Source: Sphyrna mokarran
Taxonomy: Eukaryota
Assembly: GCA_024679065.1 (NCBI GenBank)
Contig: JAGIQG010000003.1
Span: forward strand, 112,716,001-112,780,000
Length of the DNA stretch: 64,000 nt
Direction of reading: 5' to 3'
Positions 20,372 to 50,440 of this stretch are shown here, piece by piece. Numbering within the stretch: position 1 is the stretch's first letter; every line of letters begins with the position of its first letter. Below the pieces are notes generated by a model. The model worked only from the letters and a program-made list of their open reading frames with translations, was not told the DNA's origin and ran no database searches. The position numbers and the translations under genes are program-made.

Positions 20372-21598
20372 GTGGGTGATTCTCCCATCCCATTGTGCTA
20401 ATTTATTACTGCAGTGGGCTGGGAGATTTCAGCAGGTCTGGGTTAGCCCGATCCACGCTGAGCATCTGGACCTGAGCACCTCCTCCGGTGACAGATTTCT
20501 GGTGCCATCAGTTCTGTGCCGAGCAGATTTGCTTTAGGTATGCAAGGGAAGATTTTAATATAAGTTAAATATGATTAGCGGACCAGGGGTTAAAGCCGCT
20601 GGGCCCGCTAGCCTCTCCCTCAACACTCCTTCTACTCTCCCCATCCCTCCCACCATGACCCCAGCTTGGAGTATTTCACTCCAGCTGAGTTTATAGTAAT
20701 TCCTCACTTTCAGGGAGCTGATGGCCTTATCCCGCTGGAGTGAAGGGGGGGGAGGGAGAAAGGGATGCAATCAGGGCCCTCAGAGGATTGAGCAGCAGGG
20801 GGTGCCACTGGGCATTAGCACCCTGTCAGTGCCAGTCTATGCCCCCAGATCTGACTAAGGGGGAAAATGCCAATGACTAGGGGGCATCTTGGCACTGCCC
20901 ATCAGGTATGGGGCAGTGCCAAGGATGCAGGGCATATGAGGGGGGGCTAGGGAGTGGGTGAGGCCTGATAGGGGCAGAGGCTGAATATATATGAAATCCA
21001 AGGCAACGATATATTGAAAGGAGAGTTTGAAATCCTGGATGTGGATCCCTGGTGAAGATACCTAATAGAAAACATTGGTGGGGCGATCGGTGGCCCCGGC
21101 TGCCAGTCAGCAGATAGCATTGGTGAGGAAGTCAGCGATCAGGGCAGTCGGGGGTAGGGGTGAGAGACTGCAGGTGGGGAGGGTTGGTACTGCAGCGGTG
21201 GTATTTAGGAGGAAGGGGTTTGTGGCTCAGCCTGGATATGGTCTAGGATCCAGTGATTGGGCCATGGGGGAGTCACACAGCCAGCAATGTAGGAAGGGTG
21301 GTCACAGGGCTAGCCAATGATCGAGCTAGCCAGCGATGGGGAGGCTGGTAGGCAAGGGCTGATCCCTGTGCTGCCAGATTGGGGCATGCATCATGATACA
21401 CTCAGAACTTTGCTGCCAGCCTCTCCAGCAGAAAAAGTCCCTACCTACTGGTTTTCAGTGTGATTTATGCTAGTGCACTTTGTAGTGCACGGAATGTGGG
21501 AGATCCATTTTCAAACTCCCACTGAAACAAGCAGCATGATTTATTCCAATTTTCACACAAATTTGACACTTAGAATTTCTTTGGGAGAATCCACTGCC
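20372..21598. mobile_element. Non-autonomous TIR DNA transposon (GC-rich)
   Basis: Ends gggtgattctccca ... tgggagaatccactgccc form inverted repeats. A reverse-oriented relative lies at ~49035-50231. Confidence 0.65.
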
Positions 21599-21768: not shown

Positions 21769-23393
21769 TGTTACGGTCCCAGCTGATATTATTGCTGGAC
21801 AGTCAGATCTCGGAACAGAATCCTGGCTCAATAGATCATAACTTCTATTTTTTGTTTAGAGATCTATATGAACAGACATTTAACAAAATAATAAAACTTT
21901 TCATAGAATCCCTACAGTGCAGAGAGAATTGATTTAGCCCACAGAGTCTGCACCAATTTTCCAAAAGAAAATTTTACCCAGGCTCTATCCCTGCTAATCC
22001 CCATAAAATCTGTAAATTTTAGGACACTATAGAGGAGTTTGGCATGATTAATCCATCTGACCTGCACGACTTTGGACTTTTATTCGACAAGTAAAGATTA
22101 ACAATAATACACTACTCCTTCACTTCCACTAAAACTTCACAGATACACACAGATCTATAAGGATTATTCAAGATACAAGATATCTTAAACTCTAATGCTG
22201 TCAGTAAATGCACAGTCCAGGTAAACCAATAAGTGAAATGTGGCCAGGCATATTACACTCTGAAACAAAATGACAGATGCTACCAATTCAACTTCTGTGG
22301 ATTTCTCATCAAATCCTCCCAGATGTTTGTCACATTGTGAACCAACTGTCTCACTGCAATTTTAACTTACACACACCAGTTTCCAATCACCAGTCTCAAA
22401 GAACACACTTTGAAATCTTCTGCCATACAACATTTTTTATTAGGTGTCTTCACCAGGGATCCATATCCAGGATTTCAAACCCTCCTTTCAGTATATTTCG
22501 GCCTTGGGTTTCACATGTATTCGAGCTTCTTGAAATCTTGCAGGTACTCCGCCATGTCAATAGAACACCACTGTTGCACAGGTTAAATTAAGGTATCACT
22601 GACTTTAAGATTTCTTCAAGTGTCTTGAATATTGCTAACTGACTTCATCAGGTTTACACATTGCAGCTCTATCTTTAATTGAAAGCCTCTCTCTCTACCC
22701 CTTTATTTAACTTTAGTGAACAGTATCTTGTTCAAATTCTAGTTCTTGGTCCCTTGGACTCAGTTTTCCTGGGGCTCCTCTTTCATCCCCTGGTTTCTAG
22801 AACTAGCTGTTCTTTAGCTTCTGGGATTTGGTTTCTATCCCTTATTGCAGGTAGTTTCTCTGAAAGTTATATTCTCAGATACCTGGTTCCAAAGTAAACC
22901 CAAATGCTTCTACTCTTCAGTGTGGGCCTCTGGTTGTTTTACCTGTATAATTGATTTTATATCATAAACCTTTGATTACAAAGCAGGCATGGTTTAAATT
23001 GAGACCAAAACCCAGAGATATGCAGGTACCTTTGTTCAACATGAAGCTAACTGAAGTTTTAGTCTTTTCTTAGTACACGATTCCAGTGCCGGAATTGTCT
23101 GAGTGTTCATGCTGGTGGGATCTCCTGCACCCACCAATAATGTACCACTATCATGGACTTCCCAGAGACATAGGGTGCAATCAATAGGAAATTCCATTGA
23201 CAGCAGTGACCAGAAGATCCTGTTGCTGGAAAATGGAGCACCACTTCCTGTGTGCAAAACACGTTGAGGATTGGCCAAAGAATCCTCCCTCCTCACCAGC
23301 CCCCCCGTGCCAAGAAATACAAATTAGTTTAACTTATACTTTATTCTAATAAACACAAATACTAATTATTTAAGCAAGCTCTCTTTCCTAACA
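21769..23393 (-). repeat. 3' LTR (with a V-SINE at ~21900-22078 and a MITE-like insert at ~23070-23310)
   Basis: Collinear with 26927-27891 (cagctga...acagtcagatc; cacagatctata; ctggtttctagaac; tttgattaca). Confidence 0.85.
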
Positions 23394-24369
23394 CCATTCA
23401 ATGCATAACACCATTGTATCTTTCATTGAAGTAATCGTTCCCCCTTATTTCATAAACTATGCATCATATTGAATCATTACAAAGATTTAACCACAACAAA
23501 GGCAATAAACCTAACAACAATTTTGCAATACAAGTCTTTTTCTTCTTATTCCAAGTTTTTTTTTTAACTCAGAAAAGAATGTTTCACTTAAATTCACTGT
23601 CCACTCATCCTTTTTGTTTACTGTAGGCATAGTTCCATTCTTTGGTGCATTTGTTGAACTCACGTGTGGTAAACCATAATATTAATTTAGGAAAGTCACT
23701 TATTTTCTGGTCAAAGTCTGTTAGCTGTTTCAAGGATGTTGCTATGAAATTTCTTATATTCACTCAAAAGTCTTTTGTATTTCAGCTCAGTTTGAACTTA
23801 TAAATCATTTTTTTGTTTCTCCAAATCCCATCATCTTTTCAAATTCTTTTCAGCATCATCAATTACCTTCTCTCTCTGAAGTTTCATGGTTTTGTCCTAA
23901 CTCTTCAACTCTTTTGCATAATGAATAAATTACATCAGTCCAGTCCTCAACAGGTTTTGAATGATTTTTTGCAAACTGACCATTTGCCTGTATCCAAACA
24001 TCTACATCATGAGTACTTGTCCTGACAAGCATCTTTAAATCAGTGTCCTGGGTCATTGACCTGGAGGGCAGAATTCTCCAGCTACGCTAGTCTAGAAGCT
24101 GGAAATTCCCACCTGATTGTCAGAGGGATTTCACATTGCCCTCAACCCAACCAATAAAATTCCAGTGGCAGGTGGGATGAGAGATTCTGTTTGATATTAT
24201 AATTTCAGACTCTTTCGTTGCCTTTTTGTAACTTCTAATTTTGCAGGTACTTGAGCTGTTTTCCTATTGTCCATTGCTGATGTATCCACCTCAGTAATAT
24301 TACTTCCATCAATTCTTTGTTCAAATTGTTTTTATTCACAGGATCAACTTTAAAACTGCTCAATCCGAA

Positions 24370-24990
24370 CCTCCCTCCCCATCTTCTCTTTCATTTTCTC
24401 CAGTTCAAGGATCTCATTATTCTTTTCATGACAAAGTTCTAACAGTTCACCAAACCTGTTTTTCAATTCTGCATTTAACCAAGTACCAAAACATAAGATG
24501 CTGCAAAATCTCAGCAGGTCTGATAGCATCTGTGGGGAGGGAATAGAGCCAATGTTCTGAGTTTAGATGACACTTTGTTAGAACTGCTGTCAGATCTGCT
24601 GAGATTTTCCAGCATTTCCTTTTCTTGTTTCAGATTCCAGCATCCGCAGTATTTTTCTTTTATTCAATGAAGTATGCTGATTTACCAGCAATTCCTATCC
24701 TGTTCAAGACATTTTGTACAGTACTTCATAGAGACTTATGATACTTTTAACTTCATCAAGTTTTAACTGAAGATCAACCTTGCTAACTTTGCTTTTCCAA
24801 GTTCATCATTTAGACAATTCAAGTGCTCAGTCAAGTATTCCACTTTCCATGATTGCTTCTCAATTATTCTCATCAATTCTCTTTTTCTTCATTAGCAAAC
24901 TCCTCTTTCACACATGAAAATTAATTTTCTATGTTAATCAGATTTTCTTTCAATTGTTTGTTATCAGCAACAAGTGTCTCATTTTGTCTA
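24370..24990 (-). pseudogene. TPR: Captured intronless fragment of nucleoprotein TPR N-terminal coiled coil
   Basis: Frameshift-corrected translation [108 protein letters not shown], against recalled human TPR [110 protein letters not shown]. Confidence 0.85.
24486..24674. mobile_element. Penelope-type palindromic short repeat inserted in the TPR-like segment
   Basis: atgctgcaaaatctcagcaggtctgatagca...tgctgtcagatctgctgagattttccagca inverted arms. aagta is duplicated at 24481-24485 and 24670-24674. Confidence 0.75.
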
Positions 24991-25029
24991 CATTAATTTT
25001 GAAAAATCAGTTAAGATCAACTATCTTTT

Positions 25030-25300
25030 GCAATAGTATTATCGCCACACTACAATCTTCACTAGCCAAATCATTACCCAAGATAACATTTATTCCCCCA
25101 CAGGTGATTTTAAAATAATTCTCATTATAACAATTCCTTCTACAAAGTCACTTCTTAAATTAAGTTGACACATTCAATTAATATTCCTTATTAATATAAA
25201 GCTATTTAGAATATAAGCTGTATTCTCAGGCACAAAAGTTCTTTACCAACATATCTCAGAAAATTGGTTTGTCTACTTATTTTGTTGGAGGAGTAAAGGA
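25030..25300 (-). pseudogene. Decayed retrotransposon aspartic protease
   Basis: LRSDFVEGIV...P/GGINVILGNDLA, the Gmr1-type protease C-terminal motif. Confidence 0.75.
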
Positions 25301-25499
25301 ACACATCTCTCTTCAAAACAAAATCTCCAAGACCTCTAATAACCTGATCTCACTCACCAACATTCGAGGGATTCTCTAAAGTATCATGAACCATATTCCC
25401 CCTTTCTCAGAGATTCTGAGGGAGAATGTTTCACGTGTACCACTGCTATAATTTTAACAGATATTTCCTTTTCAGGTGCTACCTTTCCAGTTACTGCAA

Positions 25500-26685
25500 T
25501 TCGCCTCCCATTTAGTTTCCAGCAATCAGCCCAAATATGTCCTACTTTCTTACAGTGGAAACATTTAGGTCTCTGAATGGCACTTCCACCCTCAGCGCTT
25601 CCTTTTTTGATCTGAGCAGAATTTTCTTGACCATTCCTAACTGTTTCTTCTGTTCCCGAGCTACCTCCCTTCCTTTCACCATTCCATTTCCTATCTTTCT
25701 CAGGTTTATAAAGATGAGGGGAGAAAGGTTTGGTTCTATGGACCAGTTAATATTCACAGCCACATTTATTGCCTGTCTTGCCATTTTAATGCTGCTATTC
25801 TTCAACATGGGTCCCAGCTGCCAAAGAAAGTGAATCTTTAAATTCTTCCAAGATAAGTACTTTCCTCAGAGCTTCCCATGTAATTTCTACCTTTAATTCT
25901 AGCATCCAATGGTCAAAATTATTTTGCTTTATTCTTTTGCATTCGATGTTGTCTTTTTGGGCTATTTCCTTATATTCCGAAATTTCTGTCTGAATATCTC
26001 AAGAACCAATTCATACAAATTAAAGATAGTTTTTTTTAATTGCATTATATTTTATAAATGCCTCTTCTGGTAGTGATGCATACACTTCATGAATTCTACA
26101 AACCTACTTTGTAATAGTAATGTCTACATTTCTTTTTATCACTTCATTTGTTTAGCTACTTTTTCAAATATAATGAAGAATCCTCTATATCATTTTCCTC
26201 AAATTTGGAAGAACTTTTATAAATTTAAACAGTTGCTCACAGGTCTCTTACCTGGAAATAAGTTTTACCTCACCTCTGGTCTTTCTCCTTCTCTCATTCC
26301 TCCTTAGCTAGCTCTGCAAGTTAAGTTTTCACATGTCGAATTCCCTTTCCTTTGTTTTTCTTTCTCTTGCCCTTTTATTTGTTCCATTTGAAGTGCTTTC
26401 TCTTTTTCCTTTTCTTTTGCCTCCAATTCAAATTTTCTTTTCATTGTTAATTAAATCCTAGCCAATTCAAGTGCATCATCTCTTGGAAAAGTTTGTCTCT
26501 CAGGTATACCTTGCCATTTCAATTGCTGCACTTTTATTTTAACTACGTCTGCTTTACTTGTCCCTATAGGTAATTCTAACTAACTGATCTACTAACTCCA
26601 TTAATTGGCTCTTTATTACTTTCCATAAATAAGGCAGGATTGCATCTTCCATCTTTAGAAAAGCCTTAGCAACTTCCAATGCCAT
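25500..26685 (-). pseudogene. Decayed Gmr1-type gag (SCAN-related capsid plus CCHC zinc knuckle)
   Basis: MALEVAKAFLKMED..., LELARI*LTMKRKFELE..., FEKVAKQMK..TLLLQS, YELV.E.FRQKFRN..., LILEEFKDSL, and the knuckle CFHCKKVGHIWADC (~25522-25563). Multiple stops and frameshifts. Confidence 0.88.
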
Positions 26686-26902
26686 TTTGGATTCCAACCC
26701 ATATAATTTAACAGTAACTCTAGTTCCTATGTCCACTACTCCCATGGACCTTTTCTTTAAGGATTCACAGAACTCACCGAATGACAATAAATCCCATACC
26801 CAGTTTTGCTACTTAGTGTCCAGTAACTTATTGCCCACATATTGAAAGATCCTGATGAATTATTATTAATCAGCATCCAAAACTCTGCTCCCAAATTTCA
26901 GA

Positions 26903-26923
26903 AAATCCCGCATGAGTACCTGC
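26903..26923 (-). other. Degenerate tRNA-Pro primer-binding site
   Basis: Minus strand gcaggtactcatgcgggattt against canonical tgggggctcgtccgggattt, immediately after the LTR end. Confidence 0.55.
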
Positions 26924-26926
26924 TTC

Positions 26927-27891
26927 TGTTATAATTTTCAGCTGACGTTACTATTGAACAGTCAGATCCCAGAGCAGAACATTGGCTTAGTGGATCATTA
27001 TTTCTACTTTTTTGTTCAGAGGTATTTATGAACAGAGTCACAGGACTACAGATTGACTTTTAACAAAAGAACAAAACAATTATTCAGCAAGAAAAAAATA
27101 ACTATAATACACAACTTCTTCATTTCCATACACTTTCACAGATATACACAGATCTATAGGCATTACACAGGGTACAAATGTCTAATGTTCTACTTTAATA
27201 TTCTCAATATTAAACTGTGTATGTAAACCAATAGGCAAAATGTGGTCAAACACCCCACACTATGAAATCAAGTGACAGATGCCACCTAATTCAACGTCTA
27301 TAGATTTCTCATCAAATCCTCCAAATACCTGGTACCTCATCATGCCAACAAAACACCACTGCTTTACAAGCTGTATTAAGTGTCCGGAATGTTAGGATTA
27401 CTTCAGATGCCTGACTTCTTGCTAACCACTTCATCAAATCTGCACCATGCAGCTCTGTCTTTGACTGGGAGTGTCTTGACTTCAGTGAACAGTAACTGGT
27501 TTAGATTCCAGTTCTTCATCCCTTGACTCAGTCTTCCTGTGACTCCACTTTCACCATCTGGTTTCTAGAACGAATTAGTCTTTAGCTTCTGGGACTTAGA
27601 ACTACCTTCAAACTGAACCCAACTGCTTCTATTCTTCAGTGTGTGTCTCATGTTTGCTAAGCAACACTTAGTATTTTTCACACTGTAACTGATTTTGTGT
27701 CATAAATCTTTGATTACAATGCAGGCTCAGTTTAAAGTGAAATCAAATCCATTGACATGCAGGCATCTTTGTGTAACATAAAGCTATCACAAGTTTTAAC
27801 TGAAAATTAATCTTAAGCTTGATCTTTTACCCCATTTCTAATATTCACAAATACAGCTATCAGTTCTTTAAAGCAGCACTATTTCCAATCA
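26927..27891 (-). repeat. 5' LTR
   Basis: Homologous to 21769-23393 and followed on the minus strand by the PBS and gag. Confidence 0.85.
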
Positions 27892-40270: not shown

Positions 40271-40372
40271 TCTGAAGAAGGGTCATTCTGACTTGAAATG
40301 TTGGCTCTATTCTCCTCTCACAGATGCTGTCAGACCTGCTAAAATTTTCCAACATTTTGTTTTTGTTTCAAA
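40271..40372 (+). mobile_element. Penelope-type short repeat with a hammerhead-like core
   Basis: ctgaaga-agggtca-ttc-tgactt-gaaa followed by gatgctgtcagacctgct...ttttcca. Confidence 0.6.
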
Positions 40373-48739: not shown

Positions 48740-50440
48740 ACAAAAGACAACAATATCATCATATTTATGTCATATCTGTATGGAAGAAAAGACCCATAGG
48801 TGTTTCACAGGAACATTATTTTTAAAAATGATACCACAACACATAAAGGGATATTTCATGGGTTAGATGTTGATCAAACTGATTGATTTGAAAAATTAAA
48901 GGAGGAAAGCTAGTGGGGAGGCAGAAGGGTAGAGCGATCGTATTTTAGAGCTTAGGATCTGGGCAACTGAAGGCACAGCCACCAATGATGGTGCAATTAA
49001 AATTATTTCTGATGAAGAGTCATCCAGACGCAAAGGATGGAATGCTCCTCAAAGAATTATAAGTGTTGAATTCCAATGAAAATTGGTGTAATTCATGCTA
49101 TTTTCTCAGTGGGAGTTCAGTGAACTGCAGAGGCCATTAACATCAATATCATTAAATTTCAGGGGATGGAGCCTATCCCCACTGGAGAGGCTCAAATCAG
49201 TGCACTGAGCGGGCACTGCGCATGCACCAATCTGTCAATGCCAAGATCGGCGCATGCACAGTGGTCCCAAACTACTGGCCTCTCAATTGCTGACCAGCTC
49301 GACCGCTAGCCAACCGCCCGACCCTCACAATGTTGGTTCTCCAGCATCCCCCCCAACCCATGGCTCAATCGTTCACCCTCCCAGACCATTCCCGAGCTCA
49401 GCCCCAACCCTCCTGGCCCACCAAGATCTCCAGCCCCACCCCCACCCCCGGCCCCTCACCCCCACCCTCAGATAATGCACTGCTGAATCTTCCTAGCAGG
49501 CTGGCTTCTCCCCTATTGAACACTCCTCATCCCTCAGCCAGTCCTGATCACTGGCCTCCCTCCTTCCCCCATTGATCCTGACTACAGACTGGTAGCTGGA
49601 NNNNNNNNNNNNNNNNNNNNNNNNNNNNNNNNNNNNNNNNNNNNNNNNNNNNNNNNNNNNNNNNNNNNNNNNNNNNNNNNNNNNNNNNNNNNNNNNNNNN
49701 NNNNNNNNNNNNNNNNNNNNNNNNNNNNNNNNNNNNNNNNNNNNNNNNNNNNNNNNNNNNNNNNNNNNNNNNNNNNNNNNNNNNNNNNNNNNNNAGGCAC
49801 TGCCACTGCCATTGGTATTTTTGCCTGTTGGGTTGTATTAGGGGGGTCAGACTGCCACAGCAAGGGTGCCAATACCCAAGGGCACCACCCCCTTACCACC
49901 CTGCCTGGGAGGGCTCCGATTGTCCCCTCTCTTCACTTCAGTGGGGGTGGGCCACTAGGCTCCCCGAAAGTGGGGAGCTAGTGTAATTCCCACTGGAATG
50001 AAACATTTTGGAAGAGTGGGAGGCTTCAGTCAGAGGCTCGCTAATGATATTGAAATAATATTAAAATGACCATCTAAATTGTCTGTGCAGTCTCCCCACC
50101 GACTTCCAGCATGGCGCAGACACCACCGGAAATCCAGTACTAGGAGACACAAAAGGGGCGAGAGCGCTTGCGCATACTCTGCAAATTGTGAATAAAAAAA
50201 TTGGTACAGCGAGATGGGAGAATCGTGGCCAAAATGTTAGCTCCATCCACTCTCCACAATTGCTGTCAGACCTGCTGAGATTTTCCAGTATATTCTGTTT
50301 CGGAATTAGAATTGGGAATGCACTAGAGGCCAGAATAAAAGAAATTCAGATATTTGAGGGTTGTAGAACTGGAGTACATGACACAGATGTGGAGGAATTT
50401 GAAAACAAGCATGAGAATTTTAAACAAAACCAAAAGCTTC
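48740..50440. mobile_element. Nested L2 (minus) > Penelope-type repeat > TIR DNA transposon (~49035-50231)
   Basis: L2 halves at 48740-49000 and 50310-50440. Penelope halves at 49008-49034 and 50232-50305. The TIR element is homologous to 20372-21598. Confidence 0.65.
49601..49794. other. Assembly gap (194 N)
   Basis: Run of N inside a GC-rich repeat. Confidence 1.

Follow-up and report, generated by a model that had tools for sequence, protein, structure and literature searches.

A 64,000-nucleotide stretch of the Sphyrna mokarran genome, hereafter the window, harbours a dead, decayed copy of a shark LTR retrotransposon (27891-21769, minus strand) in which the protease is followed by a piece of host TPR, caught by the element as spliced mRNA in the sense orientation. 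An mRNA caught by an LTR element is as a rule a passenger that occurs once, whereas this capture founded a long-lived family in which one slot is filled by two unrelated host coiled coils, the frame apparently being selected while the sequence drifts. To explain it we propose, at a little less than an even chance of being right, that spliced TPR fused in frame to the protease replaced integrase-RT-RNase H, and that the frame was kept with the coil serving as what would be a generic protease-pairing module.

In minus-strand order the element comprises a 5' LTR, gag with a CCHC knuckle, protease, spliced TPR, a tail and a 3' LTR. The LTRs were found as a TG...CA pair, the 5' one at 26927-27891 and the 3' one, with several later inserts, at 21769-23393; they are 76.7% identical over 947 columns (K2P 0.28), and their 4-nt flanks (TCAT and CCAT, 3/4 matching) make a weak target-site duplication. 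One arm of an inverted pair (98 nt, 86%; window 20976-21072 and 22433-22530) lies within a 3' LTR insert. A decayed primer-binding-site-like stretch at 26903-26921, clearer in copies L093, L094 and L198, is presumably similar to tRNA-Pro. The gag region (25750-26880) has stops and frameshifts throughout; we take capsid motifs in it to be SCAN-like, and no Pfam match for such a gag capsid was found in its decayed frames. The CCHC zinc knuckle (25522-25566) matched PF00098 with E 0.0023, under the cut-off. The aspartic protease (25064-25340, ending in GNDLA at 25078-25064) had no Pfam match and was called from D-T-G and GNDLA in copies, the catalytic D-T-G being present in many of them and decayed in the window copy.

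As the earlier note had claimed, integrase and RT are missing, no RT, RNase H or integrase Pfam match having been found in the three minus frames of the window copy over 23400-25100. In Gmr1-like elements, as described in a recent report, integrase comes straight after the protease (bioRxiv 10.1101/2025.03.03.638093). Integrase was directly behind the protease in 13 of 20 lower-ranked protease matches in this genome, and Integrase_H2C2 was detected in L196 (E 0.019). Judged by sequence, the window element is a non-autonomous Gmr1-like derivative and not a full member, the integrase and then RT-RNase H being absent after its protease. Contigs of four other organisms tile the window copy with about 92% identity, and the borders between LTR and flank are spanned by short contigs (the 5' border in 4/4 runs, the 3' border in 3/4); the insertion hence predates the split of those four organisms.

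The TPR-like peptides reported earlier are indeed encoded in minus-strand frames, and protein comparison identified them as TPR: whale-shark TPR aa 89-188 aligned to 24986-24694 (E 1e-13) and aa 196-234 to 24484-24380 (E 6e-6), the alignment spanning 24986-24380 in three pieces and crossing exon junctions, and the PF25481 Nucleoprot-TPR model matched 24350-24562 above the cut-off (E 1.3e-6). The host TPR gene lies elsewhere in the genome (G000:C1548:55.297-55.359 Mb), with 23 exons mapped and 960 identities to whale-shark TPR over 1037 aa; a 68-nt exon 3 was replaced by one of 74 nt on remapping. The window copy is 72.5% identical to spliced host TPR and has no introns at host junctions 3|4, 4|5 and 5|6, of which 4|5 is the intron position at EYLT|E named in the earlier note. 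TPR codons 1 to ~33 (24951-25048) are followed by a shared deletion (modal 201 nt), then by TPR nt 310-~590, exons 3-6, spliced (24670-24950), and, beyond an insert, by the remainder of exon 6 to aa ~234 (24380-24480). The insert, a real and later addition, is palindromic, 189 nt long (24669-24481), flanked by a short duplication and of very high copy in shark runs. Its palindromic short repeat also occurs at window 40301-40364 and 50237-50303, and is inserted in copies L088, L090 and L198.

TPR had been placed ~100 bp after the protease motif; homology instead starts right behind GNDLA, at ~25060 in the 5' UTR, with the Met1 position at 25048. The capture junction (25049-25060) holds about 12-19 nt of TPR 5' UTR, host similarity beginning 12-19 nt before the ATG and five codons past GNDLA. 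A Gag-PR-TPR frame, as first suggested, is borne out by copies: GND and TPR nt 13 lie 39 nt apart, which keeps the frame, in 18 of the 29 copies that could be scored, and in seven natural copies the protease frame runs on into TPR uninterrupted by stops, four of these continuing past the first deletion. Element and TPR match patchily at UTR positions -19 to -10, the switch-point region. Since such patchy similarity across the junction fits the pattern of LTR retrocopies (PMC5131818), the TPR mRNA was probably caught by a template switch during reverse transcription.

Copies were collected with a DNA search (40 scored matches among 139 candidates, 72-80% identity), a Pfam-model search (86 matches among 280 candidates) and a search with a piece specific to longer copies (42 matches among 144 candidates). 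TPR was present in 100 of 101 fetched stretches, which establishes the multi-copy family expected by the earlier note, with at least 100 loci in three groups, namely A (n=47, the window's type), B1 (n=17) and B2 (n=33), and three loci outside them (L116, L122, L200). Exon junctions 3|4 to 8|9 were crossed by 54, 67, 78, 41, 43 and 37 among 100 copies, respectively, confirming capture of spliced mRNA by an LTR element. In a tree of 38 copies and the host, group A was separated from B1 plus host with support 100/99 (38 of 49 copies were used, 11 with big inserts or truncations being removed). Gag/protease lay upstream in 42 of 47 group A copies and in 9 of 17 B1 copies, and the tail downstream in 38 of 47 of group A. 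The TPR piece runs from the 5' UTR to nt ~1393 in B1, the longest group (to aa ~464), the oldest-looking copies keeping nt 15-1393, and ends at nt ~710 in group A. Compared with the solved TPR oligomerisation domain (aa 2-142, PDB 5TO5), group A lacks about aa 34-100, and the domain is nearly whole only in the L125, L121 and L172 types. No intact copy was found among those examined, the longest TPR-bearing open frames being of 142-179 aa, and a search for annotated protease-TPR fusion proteins (41-230 aa) gave only three marginal matches with 15% coverage. In L116, the 5' part of TPR occurs three times, once inverted.

Group B2 (L165-L195, L111, L115, L126, L128) carries TPR nt ~290-1325 with the 96- and 186-nt deletions of B1, and the window's gag, protease or LTR matched in none of its 33 copies, which places B2 outside the evidence for a protease fusion. 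The TPR piece may thus have passed from one family of elements to another. By eye, many B2 copies end ~250 nt after TPR in an R-Y-G-R..P-type stop plus purine run, an ending that resembles the pol tail of another LTR lineage, the strict pattern being seen in only two. Upstream of TPR, B2 copies have common K/E-rich coil-like frames (L187:4191-4475, minus; L189:4056-4316, plus; L176:3529-3981, minus), which may be UACA/RAI14-like; a protein search with this coil was blank and the ESM Atlas gave nothing usable. B2 also shows an apparent 21-nt insert relative to host TPR near nt 290.

Five deletions in the TPR piece are shared between copies (201, 33, 117, 96 and 186 nt), all multiples of three and none following exon borders. 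The 96-nt deletion was found in 17 of 21 copies, that of 186 nt in 10 of 22, that of 33 nt in 10 of 69 (the rest mostly 0) and that of 117 nt in 3 of 7; for the remaining deletion, 201 nt is the commonest length but occurs in only 7 of 35 copies, L096 and L160 also having it, and a second method gave 206, 206 and 207 nt in three copies. The chance that all five would be in frame is 0.004 at 1/3 each, and 0.02-0.07 under a microhomology null (0.46-0.59 each). An apparent +2 frameshift common to copies in exons 4-5 (modal length 194 versus 192) was an artefact of anchoring: neither the multiple alignment nor the second method shows it.

Read column-wise, 16 group A copies have zero stops over 297 codons starting at TPR nt 601 (window 24469 to ~23530), whereas the two alternative frames of this region contain 39 and 47 stops over 417 codons; the tail alignment used 16 of 23 group A rows, copies over 1500 nt being left out. 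One frame is open from ~25860 through protease and junction, gag further upstream being thinly covered, and the group A frame ends ~140 nt short of the 3' LTR. In B1 the open frame is 136 codons long and several hundred aligned nt still follow it, and the tail, with its 260 open codons, differs widely between A and B1. On the internal branches of A and B2, 77 non-CpG changes include 0-1 disabling ones versus 6.9 expected from copy decay rates (p 0.001 for 0), and no shared frameshift. Two seemingly fixed stops in B1 and B2 were rejected as later decay, being in CpG codons and present as stops in 6 of 14 and 15 of 29 copies.

The amino acids, by contrast with the frame, drifted neutrally. The earlier note had anticipated dN/dS<1 among copies; on element-only branches the synonymous share (23/77) is that of neutral decay (p=0.41), and conservative replacements show no excess over neutral (p=0.91). 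The host-versus-element ratio of 0.10-0.16 mixes in the host's own purifying branch. Hydrophobic residues were lost 2, 0 and 1 times versus 3.8, 2.6 and 4.3 expected (p 0.25, 0.07 and 0.06, not independent), and the heptad register of deletions (5/6) was not significant (p 0.09-0.18). The N/S of shared variants is also near neutral in the protease and knuckle regions, and this test therefore has low power. An open frame with neutral amino-acid drift points to selection on the frame and not on the TPR sequence, and we infer from these alignments that selection acted on the open frame.

The stretch after TPR (23530-24379) continues the TPR frame and measures about 260 codons in the family; in correction of an earlier reading, it is no filler, being an old open frame that contains a CEP152-like coil at ~23960-23700, visible via the family profile and not from the window copy alone. 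A profile of 11 natural tail pieces matched CEP152 aa ~930-1020 (best E 4.7e-6 among 1.84 billion), five of its eight matches being in CEP152-named clusters (basking shark, ray, pig, vole and turtle), two in unnamed ones and one in a catshark element copy. Copy L093 is 30% identical to CEP152 over 122 aa; at the DNA level, the tail matched the host CEP152 exon weakly, with a score above those of 50 codon shuffles (E 0.008). No host exon was found when the tail piece served as query, the link coming via CEP152 itself as query, and the ESM Atlas was equally uninformative on the tail. The group A frame end (window 23600-23560) resembles a motif of the 'LSDTIFSKL' type that relatives L255 and L274 carry in the linker between protease and integrase, and the tail may therefore rejoin a linker remnant.

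The host CEP152 gene lies at G000:C883:19.37-19.41 Mb, and the CEP152 piece forms a family of its own, with 78 matches among 153 candidates. Several of 15 CEP152 loci fetched have spliced exons and deletions, four have gag matches upstream, and in L218 and L229 a GNDLA-like motif stands in frame with CEP152. L218-L232 make up an LTR-like family of their own that bears CEP152, with 62-83% identity to host exons and with internal deletions. With CEP152 behind the protease of this sister family, two host coiled coils occupy the same slot, and group A stacks both. These two captured genes are the only ones identified, and they were found because they share an element.

Retroelement proteases are active as dimers, and the coil might stand in for the lost integrase/RT as protease dimeriser; in an element without IN-RT but with gag and a D-T-G protease, any coil could serve. 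Such protease pairing fits the in-frame fusion, the loose sequence and the interchangeable donors. An analogy comes from HIV-1, in which protease activation is helped by RT-RT contact (PMC11998509) and a leucine zipper behind the protease raises Gag cleavage, conformation and not primary sequence being what matters (PMC3291649). Against protease pairing count the premature cleavage and fewer particles obtained with the same zipper construct (PMC3291649), as well as the neutral synonymous share and the non-conservative replacements. The family would have been mobilised in trans by enzymes of Gmr1-type relatives; group A would derive from the long-TPR group B1 and would have gained its CEP152 piece via recombination or a second capture. 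In its widest form, the proposal is that helper-dependent shark 'Gag-protease-coil' elements repeatedly swapped IN/RT for host coils (TPR, CEP152 and perhaps a third), which were exchanged or stacked between families and selected for protease pairing; this we advance tentatively, as distinctly short of an even chance.

An open frame with neutral amino-acid drift is also what would be predicted if the captured RNA were filler, its open frame avoiding nonsense-mediated decay or spoiled translation-linked packaging and its protein tail being inert, which we consider possible but rather doubtful. The end of the group A frame before the 3' LTR agrees with this, as does the A-richness common to the TPR piece, tail and gag-PR (A 0.38-0.40), but under filler there is no reason to expect long coiled coils in both of the identified captures, nor so early a closure of the frame in B1, and the weak lean to hydrophobic retention is likewise against it. 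Neither frame nor protein would be selected had a single lucky in-frame capture simply hitch-hiked in a non-autonomous element. The neutral N/S accords with such a passenger, microhomology favours in-frame deletions, and 14 of 17 young LTR retrocopies are in the parent frame (PMC5131818); the scarcity of disabling changes, the five in-frame deletions and a 260-codon open tail that differs widely between A and B1 make it disfavoured, and in our opinion unlikely.

The earlier note stands as regards capture, family, in-frame fusion and loss of IN/RT, but not in its suggestion of a TPR-specific function at the pore, by which the fusion would pair with host TPR or dock at the nuclear basket and so ease export of unspliced element RNA. 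According to PMC3258255, TPR does restrain CTE-type unspliced RNA export, and an LTR element with its own export protein is known (Cer1 CERV; PMC10309623); moreover, TPR nt 15-1393 were kept in the oldest-looking copies. Pore anchoring of TPR, however, requires the NUP153-binding L458 and M489, and N-terminal TPR fragments rescued retention and did not block it (PMC3258255), whereas M489 is in no group and the L458 region is missing from group A. Stepwise shrinkage and neutral drift of the TPR piece, the partial loss of the oligomerisation domain, and the occupation of the same slot by CEP152 in the sister family, also make a TPR decoy improbable. A processed TPR pseudogene made by a LINE inside a dead LTR element would likewise be intronless, and the piece is on the sense strand, but the junction and deletions are shared across dozens of loci, A10+ follows the TPR piece in just 1 of 97 copies, and loci picked by protease alone had TPR next in 22 of 29 and, in a second set, 23 of 29 cases (in several of the others an insert cuts the TPR start). 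The common junction and deletions, the want of a general poly-A and the repeated protease-TPR order refute this origin, to which we give almost no credence.

mRNA capture by LTR elements is already known, as are maize Bs1 and the crocodilian ERV captures. The retrocopies made by LTR elements in animals (Tan et al. 2016, PMC5131818) are alike in being partial spliced mRNA in the sense strand; they have microsimilarity at the switch point, to which the patchy match in the shark element may correspond, and sometimes combine two or more parent genes, but they are young, whereas the shark family consists of 100+ old loci in three groups with a frame kept open through five deletions. Bs1, as described in the same source, similarly holds pieces of several host mRNAs, re-transposed with switch points in common; it has one to five copies in Zea, and the shark family is far larger, in a vertebrate, retains gag and protease, and has coiled coils as both its named captures. 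Crocodilian ERVs with KIT-ligand or nectin3, the latter in the place of a viral gene, are likewise amplified vertebrate retroelements with host mRNA, but are true retroviruses with separate ORFs, 6-9 copies and purifying selection on the protein (PMC4299795), unlike the Gypsy-type polyprotein fusion with neutral amino-acid drift in sharks. Gmr1-like Ty3/Gypsy elements keep IN and RT-RH (bioRxiv 10.1101/2025.03.03.638093), where the shark family has a host coil instead.

Acutely transforming retroviruses carry gag-onc fusions; like these and the TPR-kinase fusions, the shark elements are defective and probably helper-dependent, with host mRNA fused in frame. In TPR-met/raf/trk, the N-terminal 140-230 aa of TPR are joined to the enzyme (PMC3258255), and a rat TPR-raf protein was among our protein matches; the shark fusion has its enzyme upstream and a shortened, drifting coil, and involves no growth-promoting gene. 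If our proposal is true, it would be a natural TPR-fusion-style protease activation invented by a transposon. We found no description of a TPR- or CEP152-bearing LTR family, nor of repeated, amplified, in-frame coil capture, in the open literature, a scope outside which lie Repbase, Dfam, subscription papers, supplements and repeat-library tables that could hold such a family. The family offers a countable natural test of whether a defective LTR element needs in cis a module for pairing or no more than an open frame, and would show host domains moving between transposon families. Its copies are prone to mis-annotation in shark genomes as TPR/CEP152 paralogues or hypothetical genes, an example being the 96-aa hypothetical protein P0121 (Scyliorhinus torazame scyTo_0007575), which is a copy or fragment of the element's tail.
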